A stretch of 20,000 nucleotides of DNA from an uncultured virus (IMG/VR IMGVR_UViG_3300047661_000097). Taxonomy: Duplodnaviria > Heunggongvirae > Uroviricota > Caudoviricetes. Of this stretch, positions 2,573-20,000 are shown one piece after another. The notes beneath the pieces are model-generated. The model was given only the letters and a program-made list of their open reading frames with translations. It was not told the origin of the DNA and made no database searches. The stretch is taken from the IMG/VR virus record IMGVR_UViG_3300047661_000097. The stretch is one strand, 5' to 3'. Positions within the stretch are counted from its first letter, which is position 1. The number at the start of each line of letters is the position of its first letter. The position numbers were made by a program, and so were the translations under genes.

Positions 2573-3385
2573 CTACCCTTGCGGCGCAAAACTTTGTTTG
2601 TCTAACTTGTCTCCGCAGCAAATTGTTAGAATTTCCCCCATATCATGAATGTGAATTGCTAACAATTCTTGCAGCCTTTTCAAATCATCAAAGGTTTCAG
2701 CACTTGTTACCGCCTGTGTCAGCCGAGGGATCGACTCGGTCAAAAAGCCCACCAGCGTCGGCCGGTCGTGGAATTCGGCGATCATCAGTTCAATTGCGTA
2801 TCCTTCATCGTCAATGCCGTGTTCCGCCTGCCAATCCTTTAATCCCTGCTCAATCACTTCCCGCTGCGCTTCTTTCACGCGCCATTTCATGGTGACGTAT
2901 ACTTCGCCCACTGCCTTGTTTTCTTGCCGGGCAGTTTCTAATACCAATTCGCCTTCAAAATCCCGCGTAGTCATGGTGGCCGCAGATCCAACAATGGCTA
3001 AATCCTTACGCGTTTCCATAGGCGCTACGGCCAATTGTTCAGCGTTTTCAATTGACATTGCAATGAACTGCTCTTTAGTCAAATGTTGAAAGCGTTCCGC
3101 CAAGCCAACCATCTTGTACCAGGTTGAACGGCCAATACCCGTTGACGCACGATAACTTTTTTCGCTGGCAAATCCCAAAACTTGCCAGGCGTTTGTTGTG
3201 CGCAAAAATGCGCCTTCCCAACCAATTTCCATCGAATGCTTACTAGCTTTGTGCCATGCTTGCCGTATGCAGCAATCACTTTCTTTTACCTGCAATTCAA
3301 GCTCAGCGCTTATAGCCAGTAATCCTTGCGGCGGCAATGTGGCATCCACCATTTGCAAACTTAGCCCATCACTTGCCATGCTCAC
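2573..3385 (-). CDS. Hypothetical protein
   Basis: 270-aa ORF with AGGAGG SD; no family recognised. Confidence 0.75.
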   Translation of the reverse strand: MSMASDGLSLQMVDATLPPQGLLAISAELELQVKESDCCIRQAWHKASKHSMEIGWEGAFLRTTNAWQVLGFASEKSYRASTGIGRSTWYKMVGLAERFQHLTKEQFIAMSIENAEQLAVAPMETRKDLAIVGSAATMTTRDFEGELVLETARQENKAVGEVYVTMKWRVKEAQREVIEQGLKDWQAEHGIDDEGYAIELMIAEFHDRPTLVGFLTESIPRLTQAVTSAETFDDLKRLQELLAIHIHDMGEILTICCGDKLDKQSFAPQG

Positions 3386-10269: not shown

Positions 10270-11505
10270 TTATGCGACGATCTTCAATCTATGATCGCCT
10301 TGCTCTCTCAACTCATCTAGGGTATCAGCCCACTGCTGCATCATAGCCGTCCTATCTTCTAAATACAAGGCAAAGTTATAAGCCGCAGAAACCTTATCTT
10401 GCTTAACATGCGCCAGCTGCAATTCGATCTGTTCATGGTCAAAACCATGCTCGTGCAACCATGTCGACGCGATCGAGCGCCAGCCGTGGCCGGTCATGCG
10501 CCCCTTATACCCCATACAGTAGAGCGCATTCAAAACCGTGCTGTGGCACAGCGTTCCATTACCATGATGAGAGGCTTCAGGAAAAAGTCGGCCACTCTCG
10601 CCTGTTAGTTCATAAAGGCGCTTCAGCAACGCAACGGTCTGTGTAGCCAGCGGCACAATATGCGGCCGATTCATCTTCATGCGTTCGGGCGGAATGCGCC
10701 ATTGCTTTTGTTCCCAATCAATCTCCGACCAAAGGCCGCCGATTAATTCGCTTGTACGCACAAAGGTTAGGCTCAGTAGTTCCATGGCAATCCGCGTCAG
10801 CGCGTTGCCGTTGTAATCCCGCATATCGCAAAGCAATGCGGGAATCTCGGCAATCGGCAAATGCGCAAAGTGCTTCACCGTAGCTTTGCTTAAAATGCGA
10901 TCCGGCCGAATGCCGGCGGCGGGGTTCATTGGGATCAATCCGCGGTCGCAACCAAACTCATAAATTTGATTAATCGTTTGCAGCATACGACGGGCAACAT
11001 CGCGCGCGCCGTGCGCATCAATAGATTGGATTAATGCCACCAGTTCGATGCGGCTAATTTTCATCGGCGGCTTTTTACCAATAACCCCTAATACGTAGTT
11101 CATAAGCCGCGCTTCCATTTGCGTTGCATAACGAGGTGCCCTGTTGGCGTTCCACCAGTCAAGCCATTGCCGCGCCAGCCACTCAAACGTAAATAATGCC
11201 GTTTTTTTCTCTTCTACCAGTTTTATTTTCTGCTGTTCCTTTGTCTCTTTCCGCACGGCCATGGGATCAGTACCTTGCGCTAAAAGCAAACGAACATCTG
11301 CATGCCGCTTTCTTGCTTCCAACAGCGAAACGTCAGGGAATTTCCCTAAAGCCATCTGTTTCTGTTTGCCGTCAAACCAATACTTCCAACGCCACAGTTT
11401 GCCGCCGGCGGGCATTACTAGCAGATGCAAGCCCTGGCGATCAGGAATACGATACGGTTTCGTACGTGGCTTTGCTTTTTCGCATTTTAAATTTGTAAGT
11501 TCCAT
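10270..11505 (-). CDS. int: P4-like (IntA/IntS family) tyrosine integrase
   Basis: N-terminal arm-binding domain; catalytic R (FVRTSE), K, HGWR, LAH and Y (AAYNF) intact. Confidence 0.95.
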   Translation of the reverse strand: MELTNLKCEKAKPRTKPYRIPDRQGLHLLVMPAGGKLWRWKYWFDGKQKQMALGKFPDVSLLEARKRHADVRLLLAQGTDPMAVRKETKEQQKIKLVEEKKTALFTFEWLARQWLDWWNANRAPRYATQMEARLMNYVLGVIGKKPPMKISRIELVALIQSIDAHGARDVARRMLQTINQIYEFGCDRGLIPMNPAAGIRPDRILSKATVKHFAHLPIAEIPALLCDMRDYNGNALTRIAMELLSLTFVRTSELIGGLWSEIDWEQKQWRIPPERMKMNRPHIVPLATQTVALLKRLYELTGESGRLFPEASHHGNGTLCHSTVLNALYCMGYKGRMTGHGWRSIASTWLHEHGFDHEQIELQLAHVKQDKVSAAYNFALYLEDRTAMMQQWADTLDELREQGDHRLKIVA

Positions 11506-11523
11506 TCTCCATTTCTCCTCGGT

Positions 11524-12051
11524 TTAAGTGCTGCGTAAATTTGATGGTTTGCCAAACTCGTAAATTCGTTGAATCATCTGCAAATCCAGTTGGTCAGCTG
11601 AATTCGCTAAAAGCGGAGAATCCGTTGTGCTATTAAAGATTTCTGGAAAGCGCAAAGCAATTTCATTAAGCCACCACGCAAACCAGAGTTTTGCGCATCT
11701 GCTAAATAATTGCTTTCGCACCTGCGTGGCATTCTGTTGTAGCGCTATTGTTTTTCGTTGTAGCGCCGTCGTCTTTCGTTGTCGCTTTATTTGCTTCCGC
11801 GTTGCCATCGGATCGGTTCCGGCAGCAAGTTCCGCACGTGCTTTTGCATGCAGCGCTCGGGCCTGTAGTAATGAAACCTTAGGGTATTTTCCGAACGCCA
11901 TTTGTTTTTGCTTGCCGTCAAACCAATACTTCCAGCGCCACAATCTGCTGCCACGTGGAGTAACCAGTAAATGCAGACCGTTCCCATCAGACAGACGGTA
12001 AGGTCGCGCCGCTGGGCAAGCATTTTCGCATTTCAGATCAGTTAATTTCAT
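11524..12051 (-). CDS. Integrase arm-DNA-binding domain protein lacking the catalytic domain
   Basis: First ~85 aa closely parallel the integrase N-terminus (LWRWKYWFDGKQKQMA identical); no catalytic motifs. Confidence 0.85.
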   Translation of the reverse strand: MKLTDLKCENACPAARPYRLSDGNGLHLLVTPRGSRLWRWKYWFDGKQKQMAFGKYPKVSLLQARALHAKARAELAAGTDPMATRKQIKRQRKTTALQRKTIALQQNATQVRKQLFSRCAKLWFAWWLNEIALRFPEIFNSTTDSPLLANSADQLDLQMIQRIYEFGKPSNLRST

Positions 12052-12075
12052 TTCTTTTCAATTTGTGTTCTGCAG

Positions 12076-13166
12076 GTTGCATCTGTCCGATGCACTGCTA
12101 CTTTGTTGCTACTCCATTGCTTGCCGTTAACAATTGCTGTAAAGAGTTGCATCTGTCCGATGCACTACATGCTCGTCGCAACAACCAGCCGTATGTTTCT
12201 TCGTCGATGTTAGTTTGTTGCATCTGTTCGATGCACTCAAAATCTGTTGTTACCCCTCCAGATTCCAATTGCCTGATCCTCTGCTGTTGCATCTATCCGA
12301 TGCACTACAAACTTTGTTACTAATCGCCGCCCTGGCACTGGGCGTGTAAGCGGAGTTGTTGCATCTGCTCGATGCACTCAAAATCTGTGGCTACTTTGAT
12401 CGCCTAAACTCATGACTCACACTACCGAGTTGCATCTGTCCGATGCACTACAACTTCTTTGCTGCCCTGCGGTATGCGACTATTCGCTGAGCACTTCGAT
12501 TGTTGCATCTATTCGATGCACTACAGCTCCATTGCTACCCCATTGCTTGCGGTTGTCGCTTGCCGTTGCCAATAGTTGCATCTGTCCGATGCACTACAAC
12601 TTCTTTGCAACGACAACTGTTGTTGTTCACAACGTGGACACTGGTGTGTTGCATCTGTTCGATGCACTACAACTTCGTTGCAACTTGCGTTGGGAGTAGT
12701 CAATTCCTGCATAGTCCAAGTTGCATCTGTCCGATGCACTACAAATTCGTTGCAACGACTAACTGCGGAAAACGCGTCATGAGGCGTAGTTGCATCTGCT
12801 CGATGCACTGCACGCTCGTCGCAACTGCAAGGGACCGGGGCTACTTGCCCAGGTTGACACGTTGCATCTGTTCGATGCACTGCAAATTCGTTGCTGCAGC
12901 GGCCTATCATAGGAGGACGTTGCATCTATTCGATGCACAACAACTTCGCTGCAACGCTTCACATCGCCGAATACGTTTATGCCGGACGGTTGCATCTATT
13001 CGATGCACTACAACTTCGTTGCAGCGAATTCAACAAATTGTTCGCACTGGAGAAACTCGGTTGCATCTATTCGATGCACTGTACGTTTGTCGCAACGCCA
13101 GCAGCCATGTATATTTTTGCAGCTGATCAGTTACATCTGTTCGATGTACTGCACGATTTGGCAAAG
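12076..13166. CRISPR. CRISPR-like array 1: 16 degenerate 37-bp repeats, 15 spacers (32-36 bp, one of 21 bp)
   Basis: Repeats start at 12076, 12146, 12217, 12286, 12358, 12429, 12502, 12575, 12648, 12720, 12789, 12861, 12919, 12989, 13060, 13130; consensus GTTGCATCTRYYCGATGCACTACAACTTCGTTGCWAC. Confidence 0.93.
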
Positions 13167-13211
13167 AACGTTGAGGCATTGCGGCCGCCCCATGCCCGTA
13201 TGGACACTTTT

Positions 13212-13242
13212 ATTATACCTAAAAAATGCCCCAAAAAAACAA
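13212..13242 (-). promoter_or_regulatory. Possible sigma70 promoter reading into array 1 and the integrase genes
   Basis: Perfect TATAAT on the minus strand at 13212-13217; weak TTGTTT -35 with 19-bp spacing. Confidence 0.45.
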
Positions 13243-13560
13243 TTTGTTTGTTGCATTCCGAAAAAGCCATGGGAAAAATGTGTCACAAATATAGCACCAA
13301 AATTGCCCCCCTTGTAGAAAAATGTCTTTACGTCTCCAGGTCGAGGTTGAACAGGTAAAAGGGGGGCATATTTCCATTAAGTCCTTTATTTGTAATGAAA
13401 GAAAGGCATGGAATTGGTCGAGAAAGGTCAAGAAAAGTTTTGAATTGGAGTGGGTGAAAACATGGAATTGGCTCCTGAACGAGGATAGATTTCATTTTTG
13501 TTTTCAATAGCTTACAACGACAAAAATCAAATATAGCACCAAATATGGCACCAAAGACAC
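13220..13560. other. Probable attP region
   Basis: AT-rich; direct repeats AAATATRGCACCAAA at 13287, 13529, 13541 (arm-type-like); IHF-like TTTCAATAGCTTA near 13502; upstream of int. Confidence 0.55.
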
Positions 13561-13589
13561 AAATGGCCGATCAATGGTTCGATCGGCCA
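13553..13589 (-). terminator. Intrinsic terminator downstream of array 2 on the minus strand
   Basis: TGGCCGATC-N8-GATCGGCCA (13564-13589) followed on the minus strand by TTTGTGTCTTT. Confidence 0.6.
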
Positions 13590-13613
13590 CAAAATCTAAC
13601 TACTTGCTGCAGT

Positions 13614-14042
13614 GTTGCATCTGTACGATGCACTCTCGGGACGTTCAACGTAGTTGCATCTGCTCGATGCACTCTTGCAGTTTTCCGAGGTTGCATCTGC
13701 TCGATGCACTTCATGCTCGTCACAACGGTCGATACAGGCGGCTTTGTTGCAGACATGCGCCAAGTTGCATCTGTGCGGTGCACTCTCGGGCCGTTGCCAA
13801 TAGTTGCATCTGTCCGATGCACTCAAAGCCCGTCGCTACTTCAAAGACGTCTGTTGCAATTGAGTCGTCCTCGTTGCACCTGCTCGATGCACTGCACGCT
13901 CGTTGCAACGGCGCTTATCGTTACTAAAGCGGAGAAATGATCTGCGTTGCATCTGTTTGATGCACTAAAAACTCGTTGCTACACGAAGGATTTGTCCGAT
14001 TAACAGCAAGTGCTCTGTGTTGCATCTGCTCGATGCACTGCA
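13614..14042. CRISPR. CRISPR-like array 2: 8 repeats of the same family, three collapsed units
   Basis: Repeats at 13614, 13653, 13690, 13764, 13803, 13873, 13946, 14019 (last truncated). Confidence 0.88.
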
Positions 14043-14112
14043 TTGCGCTTTCTTCTTAATCACAAAAATAAATTTAGAAAAAAGCGCAACACACTGGTTG
14101 TCTTTACAACGA

Positions 14113-14439
14113 TCAATTAGGCTCGACATTCCCAAACTGCTCTTGCGGGATGACCGATGCCAAATCTTCATCATTTAAATTATCTGCTGGCAAAACAGAC
14201 ACATCTTTTGGCTTAGGAACAATCATCTTGTGTTCAAGCGTTTTTACGTAGGCTTCCAAATCCGACATACGAAACTTGTGCATGTACTTGCCAGTGTCTC
14301 CCATCGGGAAGGCGATCGAGGGCAAGATTCCGCGGCGCGCCATACGACGAATGGTCAGGGGAGCAAATCCAAGGTACTCAGCCGCCTCAACTGCACCAAC
14401 TAGCGGCTCCAGTTGCCGAGCAGTACTAATAACTTCCAT
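14113..14439 (-). CDS. HTH_17/MerR-like excisionase-type DNA-binding protein
   Basis: EAAEYLGFAPLTIRRMARRGILP...FRMSDLEAY; AGGAGG SD. Confidence 0.85.
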   Translation of the reverse strand: MEVISTARQLEPLVGAVEAAEYLGFAPLTIRRMARRGILPSIAFPMGDTGKYMHKFRMSDLEAYVKTLEHKMIVPKPKDVSVLPADNLNDEDLASVIPQEQFGNVEPN

Positions 14440-14544
14440 GGCAACCTCCTGTTGCCTTCTTAGCCCGTAATAGCCTTTTAAGAAGAAACTTACTTAATCT
14501 ATCCCTTTTTGAACCGTTTTTCAACAATTTATTAAGGTGAGCCT

Positions 14545-14700
14545 GTGGAAAAGAGGAAAAAGACGCTTCCCCCATACACTACAATGCCGAGCTGGCATCC
14601 GAGGAAGAGCCAGCCCGGCACCGCTATTCGGCACCGATTCACAGCGGTAGGGGTCAATTTACCGCCGGCAGCCGAAACAACGCGCCCGTAGGAACGCGCT
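14545..14700 (-). ncRNA. Candidate structured non-coding RNA
   Basis: GC-rich intergenic stretch with nested stems: 14585-14620, 14627-14676 enclosing 14644-14665, and 14679-14700. Confidence 0.4.
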
Positions 14701-14752
14701 AGCTTCATTGAAGAGAGATTCTTGTTCAAAGTCAACACCCTTTTTGAATTAA

Positions 14753-15439
14753 TCAGGCACGGAAATGAACCTTTTCAATCCTGTGCACCACAACCCCTGG
14801 AATCGAAAATCCTTCGCGATCAGCATCCGCCCGCTTATCCAGGTAACGCTGATTCGGAAGCAAAGCGATTATCGGCGCTTCGCTGGTATCGACTGCATGC
14901 ACCAACTCGGGAAAGTCAACCACTTCCGCATGAAAGCGCATACGATCCACCTTGCCACGCGTTTTCGCTGGTATAGTGCTCTGCATAATGGCAGGCACCG
15001 GCATCTCCCCTTCCGCATTTGCTGGTATAGCCGTCAGCATCGTCCGCATATGTTGCGCATCGGCTTCCGCATGTAGGCGCTCAAACTCCTGAATTGCAGA
15101 TGCCAACGCATCCTTGCTAGCGCTTACCGCATCTGCATCCGCATGCTCCATATCCAAAATCGGCTGCTTGAGATGGTCGATCGCTTGCTTGATCGGTTTA
15201 TAAAACTCAGTGATGCTTTTTGCCAACACTTGCAGCAGTCTTCCGGCTTCAATTGCCTTTTCACGGTCTTCGATACTAGCGATACCAGCGGTTACTATCC
15301 CAGAAGAAAGATGTAGTACCGTTTGCACCTCGTGACGCAACGCCGCCTGCTGAACATCAAAGTCCGTTGGCATCAGCAACTCAGGCTGCGCTACCGTTAA
15401 TTGCAGATCCGTAGGCTCAGGATCAAAATCGATTTCCAT
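14753..15439 (-). CDS. Hypothetical coiled-coil phage protein of the recombination module
   Basis: AGGAG SD; helical middle; C-terminal IPGV motif common in such phage proteins. Confidence 0.75.
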   Translation of the reverse strand: MEIDFDPEPTDLQLTVAQPELLMPTDFDVQQAALRHEVQTVLHLSSGIVTAGIASIEDREKAIEAGRLLQVLAKSITEFYKPIKQAIDHLKQPILDMEHADADAVSASKDALASAIQEFERLHAEADAQHMRTMLTAIPANAEGEMPVPAIMQSTIPAKTRGKVDRMRFHAEVVDFPELVHAVDTSEAPIIALLPNQRYLDKRADADREGFSIPGVVVHRIEKVHFRA

Positions 15440-15450
15440 TCCGCGTCTCC

Positions 15451-16110
15451 TTATGCCGCCAACTTGTAGCCGTGATTCATTTTCCAGATCGCCGAGTACG
15501 CCATGTACAAAAAAGTCTTTTCATCTTGAGAATCGTCGTAATAGATCGGTTTGACTCGGCCGTCCTTTTGAAGATGCAAAACTACGCGCAAGTACCGCGC
15601 CACGCTTTCCGTCGCTTTTGCCGCCAAAGCATAAGCCGCCGTCTGAAGCGCCCACGTCGGGCTCTCTTTTACGGCCGTTTTGAGATCAATAATGACGTTA
15701 CGGCGCATTCCCTGATATTCGATTGAACCTCGCTGGTCATACTGATAGCCAATCTTCATACCGAAAATTTCAAGAATCCCTTGCTGCTCGCAGGCACTCA
15801 ATTGAAATTTCATGTTGCGAAACCACAGCTCCGCGCCAACGACGTAGCCCATGGCGGCATCGTCTACCGTATTCCAATCCAAATTATCTTGAAGAAGTAG
15901 TTCTATGGCTTTATGTACGGCGATGCCAATTTCCGATTTATGATTCAATACATTGGGATCGACATCGCCGTAATCTACAAGGCCCAATATCTGAAAAATT
16001 TGCGTAACGCTGAGTATTTGATTCCCTAGTGCGTCACGGTAAACATGTCCAACAGGCTCAAACCATCCGCCAGGAATGCTAATCCTATTCGGTATCGGCC
16101 TTGGATTCAT
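15451..16110 (-). CDS. PD-(D/E)XK nuclease, phage exonuclease-like
   Basis: SVTQI, GIAVH, IIDLKT and LQTAAY motifs. Confidence 0.85.
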   Translation of the reverse strand: MNPRPIPNRISIPGGWFEPVGHVYRDALGNQILSVTQIFQILGLVDYGDVDPNVLNHKSEIGIAVHKAIELLLQDNLDWNTVDDAAMGYVVGAELWFRNMKFQLSACEQQGILEIFGMKIGYQYDQRGSIEYQGMRRNVIIDLKTAVKESPTWALQTAAYALAAKATESVARYLRVVLHLQKDGRVKPIYYDDSQDEKTFLYMAYSAIWKMNHGYKLAA

Positions 16111-16396
16111 CCTTTTTCTTCCTCGGAGAAGGAGTCCGCGGTTTGCCCTTAAAAACGTAAATAGTCCTGCCGTTTTTTGGGTAATGAACGCGCAAATCCA
16201 AATGATGGTTTTGGCTGTAATTGCGGATCACACGAGCCGCTTTATTCGCCAATATCCCAGTTTCATAATCCTCGGCAACAACAAGAGGCATTTTATCGTT
16301 GCCCAAAGACGTATTTCCGGCAGCTTCCACAATTTTCAAATACGGCTCGATCGGTGTCCGTTTCGGAAAGGCCGCACTATATTCCATTGTGCGCAT
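16085..16396 (-). CDS. Hypothetical protein
   Basis: GAGGAG SD; operon context. Confidence 0.65.
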   Translation of the reverse strand: MRTMEYSAAFPKRTPIEPYLKIVEAAGNTSLGNDKMPLVVAEDYETGILANKAARVIRNYSQNHHLDLRVHYPKNGRTIYVFKGKPRTPSPRKKKDESKADTE

Positions 16397-16439
16397 AATT
16401 CTTCTCCTCGGCAGGTTATACCCGCGAGGAAATAATAAA

Positions 16440-16688
16440 TCAATTCATGCGCAATCCGACACCATATTTTTTTTCGAGCTGTCGTAAATATTTTCCTACA
16501 CTCTCCGCTTCACGCATTTCTGCATAAACAAAGGGTGGAATGCCATCCCACCGGTAGCGAGATCCGTCCGTATACTTCACTTCCATTACCAAAGTATCGC
16601 GGTCATAGCCTGTTGCCGCCACGTGGCCGCTGTGCTCGACCGACTCTAAGGCAATAGCAATATTTCGTAAAGGGTCATTGTCACTCAA
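16440..16688 (-). CDS. KTSC domain protein
   Basis: VEHSGHVAATGYD...MEVKYTDGSRYRWDGIP...AESVGKY. Confidence 0.85.
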   Translation of the reverse strand: MSDNDPLRNIAIALESVEHSGHVAATGYDRDTLVMEVKYTDGSRYRWDGIPPFVYAEMREAESVGKYLRQLEKKYGVGLRMN

Positions 16689-17749
16689 TTTTCAAGCACC
16701 TCACCCTCGTCAAAATCACTGGGGCCTCCCTGCACGTTGCCCTCCGCCCATTTGCAAAGCGAATCATAGAGGTTTCGCGGCAGATCAGATACATGTTCTA
16801 CCCCTAACGGGTCCAAATATTCTCTTTTTAGATCCTCTTCCGTATGAACTTTATGGATACCAATAAGTTTATGGAGACGCTGCGCCAGCCCTTTACCGAT
16901 TGTTTGTTCCTGCAAGCGGTTTGCCGTTGTTACCTTGCCTTCCCCAAGCATCGTAGCGACGTTTGGGGGTATATCCGTTGGCTCGTCCGCCACGAGCACT
17001 GCATCAGGCTTTGCTGCGGTTTTATTTCTTTCCAGATCTGTCAGCAATTGTTCAAGATCTGGCACCGTCAGCGTTTTCGTATTTTCATGCCCTGGGAACA
17101 ATGCCTTAGCGCGTTGGCTTAATACGCGCCCATTTGGCTCAATAGCCTTGATCTTCGCGATAATCGCATCTCGACGATCCAGCAATTGTTCCGCTTCAGA
17201 ACGAGGAGCACTGGGTTCAGAAAATTGATTTGTTTTGGCTGGAGAGGGTTGGCGCACAGTCTTTAACGCTGGCGCGGGCGGTAAATCCTTTTGCGCATCA
17301 ATGTCTTCGTCAGCAACAATTCCCAACAAGCTGCAAAGGTCATAACGCCGGTTATACGTTGCATCGGTACCAACATCCTGCCGCGGTCCCGTCTCGATCA
17401 GCGCAAAGCCATCGCCGCACATCCATTCGCCACTTGAATGAATTAAATGCGTGACTACGCGCAGCTGATTCGCTACAAATATGTTTGGTTGAATGATTCC
17501 CAGTTCATGCTTTGTCAGCACAGGAAGCGCCATCGCCAGCACATCGGCTAAATCTGCGTATTTATAGTAGTAAGACTTTCCGGTTTTGGGGCTGTAAACC
17601 GTAGCCGTCTTGTTCTTCACTACTGGTTTAAATTCTGCTTGAGCTTGAATCAGCGCTGCCCAAAGATTTTTAATCTCCACAGAATGATGAAGTGCCGGTA
17701 CGTGCGCTACCGCTTGCCCAAAGTCGGTTTCTTCAAATTGTTCAACCAT
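16685..17749 (-). CDS. erf: ERF-family single-strand annealing protein
   Basis: ALIQAQ...YKYADL...HSSGEW...GTDATYNRRYDLCSLLGI..DEDID. Confidence 0.9.
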   Translation of the reverse strand: MVEQFEETDFGQAVAHVPALHHSVEIKNLWAALIQAQAEFKPVVKNKTATVYSPKTGKSYYYKYADLADVLAMALPVLTKHELGIIQPNIFVANQLRVVTHLIHSSGEWMCGDGFALIETGPRQDVGTDATYNRRYDLCSLLGIVADEDIDAQKDLPPAPALKTVRQPSPAKTNQFSEPSAPRSEAEQLLDRRDAIIAKIKAIEPNGRVLSQRAKALFPGHENTKTLTVPDLEQLLTDLERNKTAAKPDAVLVADEPTDIPPNVATMLGEGKVTTANRLQEQTIGKGLAQRLHKLIGIHKVHTEEDLKREYLDPLGVEHVSDLPRNLYDSLCKWAEGNVQGGPSDFDEGEVLEN

Positions 17750-17828
17750 TGCTTTTCCTTAAACGCAATGGCAGTCTACCGCAATTTTTTATAAGAACAA
17801 AAAGAGCACCTGATAGGTCGAGACAGGT

Positions 17829-18902
17829 CTAATTTGTTCCAATATGCGACTTCGTTTTGGCTTGAGCATGCGCACGTCTGCTGGTAAGTGCCGGCATTAC
17901 ACCACCACCAAGGTTTAGCTTTTGTCGCAGTTCGGTTTCAAGTTTAATAAAGATTTCGCTGTTTGATTTTAAAAACTCACGCGCGTTTTCTCGCCCTTGT
18001 CCGATACGCTCGCCGGCAAAGCAATACCACGCTCCAGATTTTTCAACAAGTCCGTTTAGAGCCGCTACATCAAGCACGTCGCCCTCGCGACTGACTCCTT
18101 CGCCATACAGAATGTCGAATTCCGCTTCACGAAAAGGAGCAGCGACTTTGTTCTTCGCTACCTTTGCCCTGGTCCGATTGCCGATTGCGGCTTCGTTAAA
18201 CTTTACGGGGCCAATACGTCTTATATCAATGCGTATCGAAGCATAAAACTTCAAGGCATATCCGCCGCTAGTAATCTCTGGATTGCCGTACCCCTGGTTA
18301 ATTTTTAGTCTGATCTGGTTGATAAAAATCAGCACGGTAGGCGATTTTTTTAAAACGCCGGAAAGTTTGCGCATTGCTTGCGACATCAGACGAGCTTGTA
18401 ACCCTACGTGCGCATCGCCCATTTCTCCATCTAGTTCGGCTTGCGGCACCAAGGCAGCGACAGAATCGACAACAAGCACGCTAATCGCGCCAGTCGAAAC
18501 CAGCTTATCGGTAATCTCCAAAGCTTCTTCACCAGAGTTCGGCTGCGAAACCAAAAGATTGTCTATGTCAACTCCCAGTTTCTTGGCATAACCGGGATCA
18601 AGTGCATGCTCGGCATCAACAAACGCAGCCAAGCCGCCTTCCCGTTGCGCTTGAGCAATGATTTGTAGCGCAATGGTAGTTTTCCCTGAAGATTCTGGGC
18701 CAAAGATTTCCGTAATGCGGCCGCGCGGCACGCCGCCTACACCCAACGCCATATCAAGGCTAACAGAGCCCGTCGACACCACATCGATTGGCATCAATGC
18801 TTCCTTCGAACCTAGTCGAATAATAGAACCTTTGCCAAATTTCTTTTCAATTAACGCCAGCGCTTGCTCAATACTTTTGGTTTGGTCTTCGGTATTAGTC
18901 AT
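17829..18902 (-). CDS. recA: Recombinase RecA (phage-encoded)
   Basis: [32 protein letters not shown]; full length; likely start MTNTED at 18902 (ORF track 18917). Confidence 0.97.
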
Positions 18903-18918
18903 CGGGCGTTCCCCCACC

Positions 18919-19017
18919 AGTCCAGGATCTGGACTGCATCTTTTGCAGTTTATCGCTATTCTTTTTATGGTCTAGATTGGTCGAGAAAAGTTGAGAACGG
19001 AGTCCAGATTCTGGACT
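18919..19017. promoter_or_regulatory. Two 17-bp palindromic operator-like sites AGTCCAG-N3-CTGGACT
   Basis: 18919-18935 and 19001-19017, in the divergent intergenic region upstream of recA. Confidence 0.7.
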
Positions 19018-19075
19018 ATTTTGCTTTACAAAAATTTGACTGGACGTAGATTGCATTTTGTCTTAAGCTGCGCCC

Positions 19076-19276
19076 ATGAGCAATCAAGCAAGCACGCAAA
19101 AATTAACAAAAGCCGACCCAAAATTTTATTCAAAGATTGCGGCAATCGCTGGCCAGAAATTGTTAAAGGAACGCGGCACAAAATATTTTTCTAAGCTGGC
19201 GGCAAGCAGCCACCCCCGAGATTCCTATAACGGTGGCAGGCCCAAAAAAATTAAGGATGAAAGCTGCGCCAGTTAA
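19076..19276 (+). CDS. Small basic protein resembling KGG/general-stress-repeat proteins
   Basis: Repeated FYSKIAAIAG / YFSKLAA segments, GGRPKK tail; followed by a hairpin at 19277-19297. Confidence 0.65.
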   Translation: MSNQASTQKLTKADPKFYSKIAAIAGQKLLKERGTKYFSKLAASSHPRDSYNGGRPKKIKDESCAS

Positions 19277-19306
19277 TTCGTCTGCAATATAGACGAAGTG
19301 TATTTT

Positions 19307-19841
19307 GTTGCATCTATTCGATGCACTACAATTTCGTTGCTGCCAGTCCGCACTTGCTTTCGGCCAGAGATCATCTCGTTGCATCTGTTCGATGCACTAT
19401 AACTTCGTTGAAGCTTGAAAAAGAGCGGAACATCTTTGCACAAACGATGTTGCATCTGCTCGATGCACTGCAACTTCGTTGCTAACTACCCTCTACCGCA
19501 AGTCAGGCTGATGTTCACCGGTTGCATCTATTCGATGCACTCCAACTTCGTTGCAGCGCGGCGGAGAAGCGGCAGAACTATCTTCTGATGCAGGTTGCAT
19601 CTATTCGATGCACTGCAAATTCGTTGATACAATCGTTATCTGGAACCGTGGTACTGGTTCTTCAGTTGCATCTGCTCGATGCACTCCAAACCCGTTGCTA
19701 CATAAATTCCATCCCTTACATCACCCCCCAAGATGTTGCATCTGTTCGATGCACTACAACTTCGTTGCTACCCTGATAAAAAAACTAAAAAGACACGCGC
19801 TATAGTTGCATCTGTTCGATGTACTACAAATTTGTTGCTAC
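19307..19841. CRISPR. CRISPR-like array 3: 8 repeats, 7 spacers (33-36 bp)
   Basis: Repeats at 19307, 19378, 19449, 19521, 19594, 19665, 19735, 19805. Confidence 0.92.
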
Positions 19842-19877
19842 CGCGGTCTTTGCGGCACTGACCCCTTTTAAAGGGGA

Positions 19878-19907
19878 ACTATATACTTTAGTCCCAACCG
19901 GTGTTAA
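19878..19907 (-). promoter_or_regulatory. Possible sigma70 promoter reading into array 3
   Basis: Minus strand TTAACA-N18-TATAGT; palindrome CCCCTTT-T-AAAGGGG at 19862-19876. Confidence 0.45.
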
Positions 19908-19916
19908 GGTTGGTGC

Positions 19917-20000
19917 ATGACTGATGAGCAGCAGCCAAGCACGGAACAACCCTCTGATATTGCCGACATCGGAACCCAACTCCATCAAATTGCAGACCGA
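19917..20000 (+). CDS. Start of an ORF running off the window
   Basis: ATG at 19917, open to the window end: MTDEQQPSTEQPSDIADIGTQLHQIADR. Confidence 0.45.
   Translation, partial: MTDEQQPSTEQPSDIADIGTQLHQIADR

Follow-up and report, generated by a model that had tools for sequence, protein, structure and literature searches.

In Cas12 and TnpB systems, the RNA scaffold lies 5' of the guide. Type V-M (V-U1) systems are built around Cas12m, which the available part of its published description presents as lacking acquisition genes, using a crRNA of 50-60 nt and binding DNA without cutting it; Cas12m proteins with an intact triad are described there as also failing to cut (PMC11013384). The closest described biology to that reported here is the Cas12r-CRISPR of Thermus Lalka phages. 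In the accessible text of that preprint, a type V system carried by a temperate phage combines degenerate repeats with spacers against integrative mobile elements, involves no tracrRNA, keeps 26 nt of the repeat in the crRNA, works with a single repeat and is found on a phage without adaptation genes (bioRxiv 10.64898/2026.04.20.719267). According to the same text, repeats of the Lalka system measure 29 bp, its effector is a 564-aa protein of a different TnpB branch, its PAM is ARG and each phage has a single short array, whereas the system presented here has 37-nt repeats, a probable 5'-TYC PAM, many arrays per phage and, in some cases, an I-C-like adaptation module. Viral repeats standing without cas genes are also known as RNA anti-CRISPRs (Racrs) and virus-borne mini-arrays, for which the part of the source at hand indicates that the Cas-binding portion is what matters (PMC10651486). 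The arrays here differ from Racrs in being long and regular, with spacers of normal length that have targets. A full-text literature search found no description of this phage Cas12m-like system, which may have been published elsewhere.

The window, by which we mean the whole 20-kb stretch of viral DNA that was analysed (20,000 nt), carries the gene set of an integrative phage-like element. Its genes, all on the minus strand, include a methyltransferase, a primase-helicase, a replication initiator, an integrase and a truncated integrase copy, and further an HTH/excisionase-like protein, exonucleases, ERF and RecA. Within it lie 32 copies of a 37-nt repeat, every one on the plus strand, split into arrays of 16 (A), 8 (B) and 8 (C) copies. 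Each copy joins a 21-nt block, here called the handle, to a variable half of 16 nt. We consider it quite probable that these are leaderless, phage-borne type V arrays, transcribed on the minus strand, in which selection acts on the hairpin of the repeat only and the guides are directed against rival elements with a 5'-TYC PAM. The features concerned are the following.

12076..13166, minus strand: array A, 16 repeats of 37 nt and 15 spacers of 21-36 nt; divergence 0.42 in the variable half and 0.075 in the handle; no leader motif
13614..14055, minus strand: array B, 8 repeats with uneven spacing; variable-half divergence 0.58
13614/13653/13690 and 13764/13803: back-to-back repeats of array B, 0-2 nt apart
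19307..19841, minus strand: array C, 8 repeats and 7 spacers; variable-half divergence 0.25
12612..12647, minus strand: spacer with a protospacer in a 3739-nt RNA-library contig
13983..14018, minus strand: spacer matching the Telmatobacter bradus chromosome
13563..13590, minus strand: terminator-like hairpin, 12-bp stem and T-rich tail, from a consensus scan only
19878..19907, minus strand: sigma-70-like promoter match, TTAACA-18-TATAGT, 10/12, from a consensus scan only
14113..14439, minus strand: HTH/excisionase-like gene, the same-strand neighbour immediately upstream of array B
11524..12051, minus strand: truncated integrase reduced to its Arm-DNA-binding domain, the same-strand neighbour immediately downstream of array A

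Array A adjoins the truncated integrase at its start, and array C lies beyond RecA, in the position that an effector-adjacent array holds in a related phage (order array, RecA, ERF). No effector, cas1 or any Cas-like protein was found within the 20-kb window, and the frame left open at its right edge does not encode the C-terminus of an effector. G001, the nearest record, is 99.98% identical to the window and is not independent evidence, because it is the same phage.

Inspection of the 32 copies, which were placed by periodicity and independently of the handle pattern, reveals a repeat of two very unequal parts. Positions 1-21 consist of GTTGCATC, a 5-nt loop and GATGCACT, and a degenerate form of this pattern occurs at 34 sites in the window versus 2.2 expected from shuffles, 32 of the 34 being array copies. 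Each of positions 1-9 and 13-21 contributes 1.7-2.0 bits of information; the figure falls to 0.9-1.2 bits at loop positions 10-12, lies at 0.2-1.5 bits over positions 22-37 and is 0 in the flanks. Off-consensus cells number 154/512 in the 16-nt half versus 6/512 in the handle without its loop (Fisher p = 1e-43), a 26-fold difference between two halves of one 37-nt unit, and a uniform spread of deviations over the 37 positions is rejected on a formal alignment (chi-square p = 1e-29). All 32 of the 37-mers are distinct, as are all 32 of the 16-nt halves; the handles take only 12 distinct forms. An earlier note on this DNA had described a nearly invariant 21-nt handle joined to 16 diverse base pairs and had proposed per-position information and a test for evenly distributed mutation as checks, and both bear the description out. 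Repeats in arrays A and C are spaced 69-73 nt apart with one exception of 58 nt, and their spacers, each unique, measure 32-36 nt; array B is irregular.

Read on the minus strand, the repeat consists of 16 variable nt, then AG-UGCAUC-loop-GAUGCA-AC, then the spacer. The copy at 13130 does carry the compensatory exchange that the earlier note had pointed out, in which a G-C stem pair has become A-U. The note had also proposed a covariation analysis over homologous phages, and in 238 unique repeats of relatives the six stem pairs contain 32 compensated Watson-Crick cells. Single-sided changes in the same set comprise 17 A.C and 9 G.T cells and 0 transversion mismatches. The observed pairing was reached in 0/300 shuffles, double changes are independent at four pairs (A-U 4-18, C-G 7-15, U-A 8-14 and G-C 6-16), and the handle stem is 99% paired. 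That is to say, the stem covaries. A second hairpin in the 16-nt half was considered and rejected; it folds well in the consensus copy, shows no covariation and is paired at 62%, which is no better than the shuffle level. By covariation and comparison with shuffles, no conserved structure was found in this half.

Arrays built on the handle pattern recur in numerous IMG/VR contigs as well as in a few genomes of Acidobacteriaceae, including the complete genome of Telmatobacter bradus, with some phage contigs holding up to 50 repeats per genome in 4-5 arrays. In several contigs the neighbour of the array is a protein of 745-770 aa with a C-terminal zinc ribbon and RuvC motifs. The protein at L108:2907-5144 is of the TnpB/Cas12 type and contains a Pfam Cas12f1-like TNB domain (7.7e-7). 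When a profile of 22 family members was compared with the PDB, Cas12m chains matched best (23vw_A at 2.4e-20, followed by 3.9e-14 and, for Cas12m2, 1.3e-9), with sequence similarity to Cas12m limited to the C-terminal part (about a third; ~340 aa). PADLOC assigned scores of 2e-26 to 2e-28 with its Cas12u1 (V-U1) model, and its V-F (Cas12f) model does equally well, at 7.8e-29 for a lineage-f protein. An AlphaFold2 model of the effector (pLDDT 83.3, pTM 0.63) returned four Cas12m structures as the top Foldseek matches, ahead of Cas12f and TnpB (E 3e-19 to 1e-15; TM 0.49-0.58 when normalised by target length), at about 14% identity in structural alignment. Most family members hold a D/E-E-D RuvC triad: the RuvC-I residue is D in 12/22 sequences and E in 6/22, the RuvC-II residue is E in 20/22, and the RuvC-III residue is D in 19/19 sequences with that region. 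In public data the family forms 103 sequence clusters, none of which is named Cas, and its ESM Atlas matches are generic TnpB-like clusters only. From profiles and the structure model, the effector appears to be a Cas12m-like type V protein of ~750 aa, with Cas12m as its nearest relative.

Effector and repeat occur together in the relatives. Of 52 effector loci, 41 were examined, leaving out 1 duplicate and 10 with a gene fragment at a contig end, and 36 of the 41 have at least 248 nt of downstream sequence and form the usable set. Co-oriented arrays of this repeat follow the effector in 30/36 of these loci, which are not independent because they include repeat samplings of identical phages. 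The array starts 8-211 nt past the effector, or about 2.1-3.0 kb past it where adaptation genes intervene, and in L152 the effector match runs at its end into the first repeat. Arrays in the opposite orientation are present in 4/36 loci, all of one lineage, and no array in 2/36; false opposite-strand arrays of L153, where the handle is near-palindromic, were excluded from these counts. The provirus G019 presents the order effector, cas4, cas1, cas2, about 180 bp and then 11 identical repeats, and its adaptation proteins score best as type I-C kinds (Cas4c, Cas1c at 1.4e-142 and Cas2c). The cas1 gene also adjoins the effector in L151 and L162, giving three lineages in all; none of the remaining effector loci examined has it. 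The cas4-cas1-cas2 locus showed no Cascade or Cas3 genes, and no cas6 or cas9 was seen beside any array. The repeats are type V CRISPR repeats, tied in relatives to the Cas12m-like effector. The earlier note had likened the repeat to those of Cas12j/Cas12m-like and Cas12f systems; the effector of the relatives is nearest to Cas12m.

How the system compares with V-M can now be set out. Among solved structures, Cas12m ranks first both in the profile comparison and in the structural one, most loci here consist of effector plus array with no other cas genes, and one would expect, by analogy, a single crRNA whose 5' part derives from the repeat, together with a 5' PAM. Three V-M traits fail. The effector here has 745-770 aa versus about 600 for Cas12m, that is, about 150 more; cas4-cas1-cas2 accompany it in three lineages; and Cas12m repeats are described with two stems, whereas one stem is maintained here. 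The setting differs as well, since these arrays reside on temperate phages with at most 50 repeats in 4-5 arrays per genome. We do not file the system as V-M: on sequence and model evidence it appears to be a type V-like, tracr-less system nearest to V-M. Possibly it belongs among the predicted variants, V-U6 to V-U45, named in the available part of one survey (PMC10691335). The adaptation module resembles that of type I-C, in that the Cas4c, Cas1c and Cas2c models score best, the spacers measure 33-36 nt and the protospacer flank fits the 5'-TTC given in the accessible text on I-C (PMC8406640), but it differs in being attached to a class 2 effector with no Cascade or Cas3 seen.

The arrays are read on the minus strand of the window, which settles an orientation that the earlier note had left undecided. 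A leader motif, the direction of the cas operon and the strand of the window genes all agree on this. The leader motif, (T/A)(T/C)CGC(G/T)(A/T)ACC, was defined after inspection of array flanks. Six lineages have it outside the terminal repeat, on the side of the 16-nt half and at a distance of 44-47 nt; in L065 the distance is 34 nt, beside the effector of lineage b it is 7 nt, and in G019 the motif falls in the interval from cas2 to the array. Repeats adjoining the motif are the most uniform. Position and adjoining uniform repeats together constitute the behaviour of a leader, and thus indicate transcription on the minus strand of the window. Followed along the direction of the G019 cas operon, the repeat runs 16 nt, hairpin, AC and spacer. 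Given minus orientation, each repeat is thus made up of 16 variable nt, the hairpin and AC, with the spacer after it. Promoter-like and terminator-like sites, as consensus matches only, fit the minus reading, with the promoter-like match at 19878..19907 directly upstream of array C and the terminator-like hairpin at 13563..13590 directly downstream of array B; sigma-70-like sites found by the scan number 3 versus 1.3 expected. The note had cited promoters and terminators in favour of minus; the wobble variants at 13764 and 19805 that it had cited in favour of plus are outweighed in the larger set of repeats. Wobble counts were tried as an orientation test and proved too weak. Among the 238 unique repeats, 17 wobble cells fit minus and 9 fit plus, which is weak either way, and the single-sided stem changes of the window give 1 G.U and 2 mismatches on minus versus 2 G.U and 1 mismatch on plus.

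The leader motif has 0 matches in the window, so that all three arrays are leaderless, and arrays with and without the motif differ. Among distinct arrays of at least 4 repeats, which are not phylogenetically independent, the 16-nt half diverges by a median of 0.088 in the 10 leader-bearing ones versus 0.369 in the 29 leaderless ones (Mann-Whitney p = 7e-5), and without two near-duplicate rows the contrast holds at 9 versus 28 arrays (p = 9e-5). Four leader-bearing arrays stand at or near zero, with 0.0 for arrays of 22, 11 and 7 repeats and 0.05 for one of 5 repeats. Handle divergence is low in both groups (medians 0.035 and 0.098). Taken by lineage, mean divergence in 12/12 lineages is 4-17% in the handle and 36-69% in the 16-nt half, where handle conservation in relatives is biased upward because their copies were gathered with a pattern tolerating at most 4 substitutions in the 21-nt block. 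The simplest reading is that whole-repeat uniformity is a by-product of integrase copying at the leader and that, once copying stops, only the part held by the effector stays under selection. The contrast between leader-bearing and leaderless arrays supports the earlier proposal that selection acts on the crRNA handle alone and that the arrays are in use and not decaying. The accompanying proposal that repeats are not copied by Cas1-Cas2 agrees with the leaderless arrays of the window but does not extend to the family, which uses Cas1-Cas2 in three lineages. One pattern is not predicted by a simple leader model: in a leaderless array of 23 repeats in lineage b, the most uniform repeats occupy the end opposite to the presumed promoter side.

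A mosaic origin of the 16-nt halves from other lineages was considered and rejected, since most halves of the window have their nearest neighbour within the window. Sub-types of the 16-nt half are interleaved along array A. No orthologous arrays of intermediate divergence from which rates could be taken were found, arrays common to several contigs being essentially identical, and distinct lineages have no spacer in common.

Protospacers were found for 7 spacers, 2 from the window and 5 from relatives, 3 of the 7 matches being weak, with E values of 4e-4 to 5e-4 per genome in a search of 301 genomes. The hairpin-side flank reads G-R-A in 6/7 cases, and likewise in the seventh after a shift of 1 nt. 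Expressed in the sense of the crRNA, this flank is 5'-TYC (n = 7), located 5' of the protospacer on the handle side, and it agrees with the 5'-TTC PAM that the available text reports for type I-C (PMC8406640). Matches were obtained for only 2 of the 27 window spacers of at least 21 nt. For the spacer at 12612-12647, window positions 12617-12648 match a 3739-nt contig with 1 difference and a hairpin-side flank of G-A-A; the contig is present in two RNA libraries (runs X17 and X18), and the spacer has 0 matches in IMG/VR. The spacer at 13983-14018 matches the T. bradus chromosome at 31/36 positions, with the 21 hairpin-proximal nt perfect and a G-A-A flank (E 3.3e-5 per genome, 301 genomes searched). 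Its target is an ORF of unknown kind in an ICE-like region, between an Xre/ImmA-type regulator and an SNF2 helicase and near a TrwC relaxase. A spacer of G010, a 26.9-kb element, matches 35/36 positions 12 kb away in the same ICE-like region. When 227 unique spacers were compared with the phage DNA of the relatives, one match was obtained, from the MAG locus L065, in a conserved phage gene homologous to the window ORF at 2573-3385. No match was found between the window arrays and INPHARED phages, and array C gave repeat-level or short matches only against the 301 Acidobacteriaceae genomes. In G021 the match is weak and at repeat level only. Judged by these matches, the guides are likely aimed at rival mobile elements, with a 5'-TYC PAM.

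Contigs from four peat RNA libraries cover parts of arrays A, B and C; these contigs are unstranded and carry no end information, and such libraries may contain DNA. In DNA data, 14 runs hold 94-99% of the sampled words of window positions 11000-20000, with 9 of them possibly the source of the window DNA, and the arrays are therefore widespread and stable as sequenced. Among the 301 species genomes of Acidobacteriaceae, an array was found only in T. bradus (9 handles), and effector fragments in one genome only. T. bradus keeps a 7-repeat array with a leader motif, and the queries used found no effector homologue, TNB protein or Cas1 in it. Two viral records rated 100% complete contain 27 and 30 repeats and have no effector, TNB protein or Cas1. 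From T. bradus and these two records, arrays without an effector in cis are common, and use in trans is thus possible. The phage of the window probably has access to an effector, encoded either in cis beyond the window or in trans.

The following mechanism would unite these observations. The arrays would be transcribed on the minus strand of the window, and the 21-nt block that closes each repeat at its 3' end, made up of AG, a 6-bp stem, a 5-nt loop and AC, would be what the effector recognises. This block would be kept as the 5' handle of the crRNA with the following spacer as its guide, and the upstream 16 nt would be cut off or left unbound. Both the assignment of the conserved block as the mature 5' handle and the putative processing site are inferred from the pattern of conservation. 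The 16 nt would be relevant only to the Cas1-Cas2 integrase, which would copy whole repeats at the leader. As the window arrays have no leader and gain no spacers, nothing would renew the 16 nt, which would drift, and the hairpin would be held by purifying selection together with compensatory changes.

An alternative in which the arrays act as RNA anti-CRISPR decoys, with many handles soaking up a Cas12m-like effector of the host or a rival and the sequence between handles irrelevant, has several points in its favour. Phage repeat mimics that inhibit Cas proteins are reported in the part of that work available (PMC10651486), conservation here appears confined to the presumed protein-binding hairpin, the window has no effector, array B contains handles with almost no spacer between them, and two complete viral records combine 27 and 30 repeats with no effector or cas1. 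We nevertheless regard decoys as improbable as the main explanation: spacer length in arrays A and C stays within 32-36 nt, as in arrays derived from adaptation, 2 window spacers and 5 spacers of relatives match other elements with a consistent flank motif, and many related phages encode the effector beside such arrays. Decoy and retargeting roles are also compatible with each other. If the arrays were instead dead remnants, with the hairpin conserved through mutational bias or a DNA-level role, then the lack of effector, cas1 and leader in the window, the mutual difference of all 32 repeats and the disorder of array B would be expected. This reading is very unlikely given the 26-fold excess of deviations (154 versus 6 of 512 cells) within one 37-nt unit, independent compensatory changes at four stem pairs, recurrence of the half-versus-half contrast in 12 lineages and coverage of the arrays by RNA-library contigs.

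Reading the arrays on the plus strand, so that the hairpin would become a 3' handle after the spacer with Cas6-like or type II-like processing, strains credibility further. It would accommodate two of the three single-sided stem variants of the window, which are G.U-compatible on plus only, and the 23-repeat array of lineage b, which is uniform at its plus-strand 5' end and degenerate at its 3' end. Set against these are the leader motif on the other side in seven lineages with uniform repeats adjoining it, a cas operon and 30/34 effector-adjacent arrays co-oriented with the minus-type reading, the full-set count of 17 cells for minus versus 9 for plus, the general position of the Cas12/TnpB scaffold 5' of the guide and the lack of any cas6 or cas9 seen beside an array. 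Least credible of all is that the hairpins are DNA sites, such as iterons or partition or recombination sites bound by a phage protein, and not RNA elements. The element is palindromic and the arrays do lie beside integrase, excisionase-like and recombination genes, but a canonical array of this very repeat follows cas12-cas4-cas1-cas2, a PAM-like motif flanks the protospacers of the spacers, and the stem covaries so as to retain pairing and not sequence.

Under the favoured reading, that of leaderless type V guide arrays, we offer one further suggestion tentatively and rate it as possible but doubtful: guide-only arrays may be shared among mobile elements, such that leaderless guides load a Cas12m-like protein supplied by a co-resident prophage and silence rivals. 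Silencing would be expected over cutting, because cutting an integrated target would kill the lysogen. If this were true, phages and small circular elements that bear tens of leaderless guides without an effector, such as the complete records of 26.9 kb (with terminal repeats) and 35.4 kb, would turn the DNA binder of another element on rivals, for example ICEs on the same chromosome, and conservation of the handle alone would mark prolonged use in trans with no adaptation.

In natural arrays the part of the repeat that the effector requires is normally concealed, because the integrase maintains all copies as identical. The 32 copies in one phage, together with several hundred in its relatives, constitute a natural mutational experiment. 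Its result points to a minimal handle of 21 nt for an uncharacterised, apparently Cas12m-like protein of 750 aa, with a likely 5'-TYC PAM, and this handle may serve as a design rule when a compact RNA-guided protein is tested for DNA binding or cleavage. For peat Acidobacteriaceae, the arrays, which some elements carry as guides with no effector, point to a lineage of temperate phages bearing up to about 50 guides per genome, likely directed against other mobile elements.

Inspection of the 16-nt halves of the window repeats, the diverged part beside the conserved handle hairpin, reveals sub-types such as ..GCTCGTCGCAAC and CAAAATCTGT.., exemplified by the copies at 12146, 12789, 13060, 13690 and 13873 versus those at 12217 and 12358. 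These sub-types are interleaved within and between arrays rather than in blocks, a sequence pattern that suggests unit shuffling or duplication on top of point drift. In array B, some repeats lie back-to-back with 0-2 nt between them (13614-13839), and a 61-nt repeat-repeat unit is duplicated (13614-13674 and 13764-13824, 84% alike). Array A holds one spacer of just 21 nt (12898-12918; repeat spacing 58).

The window also carries two integrase genes, the truncated copy directly following the full one, and a motif, TGGTCGAGAAA..GTTxxGAA, common to two sites:

10270-11505, full tyrosine integrase
11524-12051, truncated integrase copy, Arm-DNA-binding domain only
13415-13444, TGGTCGAGAAA..GTTxxGAA, between arrays A and B
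18968-19007, TGGTCGAGAAA..GTTxxGAA, in the region upstream of RecA

The integrase pair may represent two elements in tandem or a duplication of the integrase 5' end. The shared motif is possibly an operator. For one window spacer, a 32-nt match (window 12617-12648) was observed on a 3739-nt contig from two RNA libraries. This contig, at a depth of about 112, may be the transcript of a DNA element or else an RNA replicon.

Two arrays of relatives combine identical repeats with the leader motif, which is found beyond the variable-half side of the terminal repeat:

L048:9931-10396 (chromosome 1031870-1032335), Telmatobacter bradus, 7 identical repeats
L076:10001-11629, IMG/VR record G010, 22 perfectly identical repeats

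In the complete T. bradus genome, which also contains ICE-like targets of phage-borne spacers, the queries used found no effector homologue, TNB protein or Cas1. G010 is a small circular element with terminal repeats, of equal assembled length in three samples, and its 26,902 bp hold neither cas1 nor an effector; spacer uptake would need to occur in trans.

Alignment of the effector family (alignment A1) shows that 6 of the 22 proteins, among them the effector beside cas4-cas1-cas2, have Glu rather than Asp at the RuvC-I catalytic position (residue 447 of the first sequence). Three short family members are missing the RuvC-III and zinc-ribbon part.

In seven effector lineages, a single handle hairpin lies 16-24 nt 5' of the effector start codon, co-oriented with the gene:

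L150:4957-4977, co-oriented solitary handle
L156:3965-3985, co-oriented solitary handle
L158:2831-2851, co-oriented solitary handle
L161:1378-1398, co-oriented solitary handle
L162:3958-3978, co-oriented solitary handle
L180:3964-3984, co-oriented solitary handle
L186:3963-3983, co-oriented solitary handle

The solitary handle presumably resides inside the effector 5' UTR, where it could allow the effector to bind or cut its own mRNA, that is, autoregulation; alternatively, a guide-like RNA could be produced from the start of the effector's own gene.
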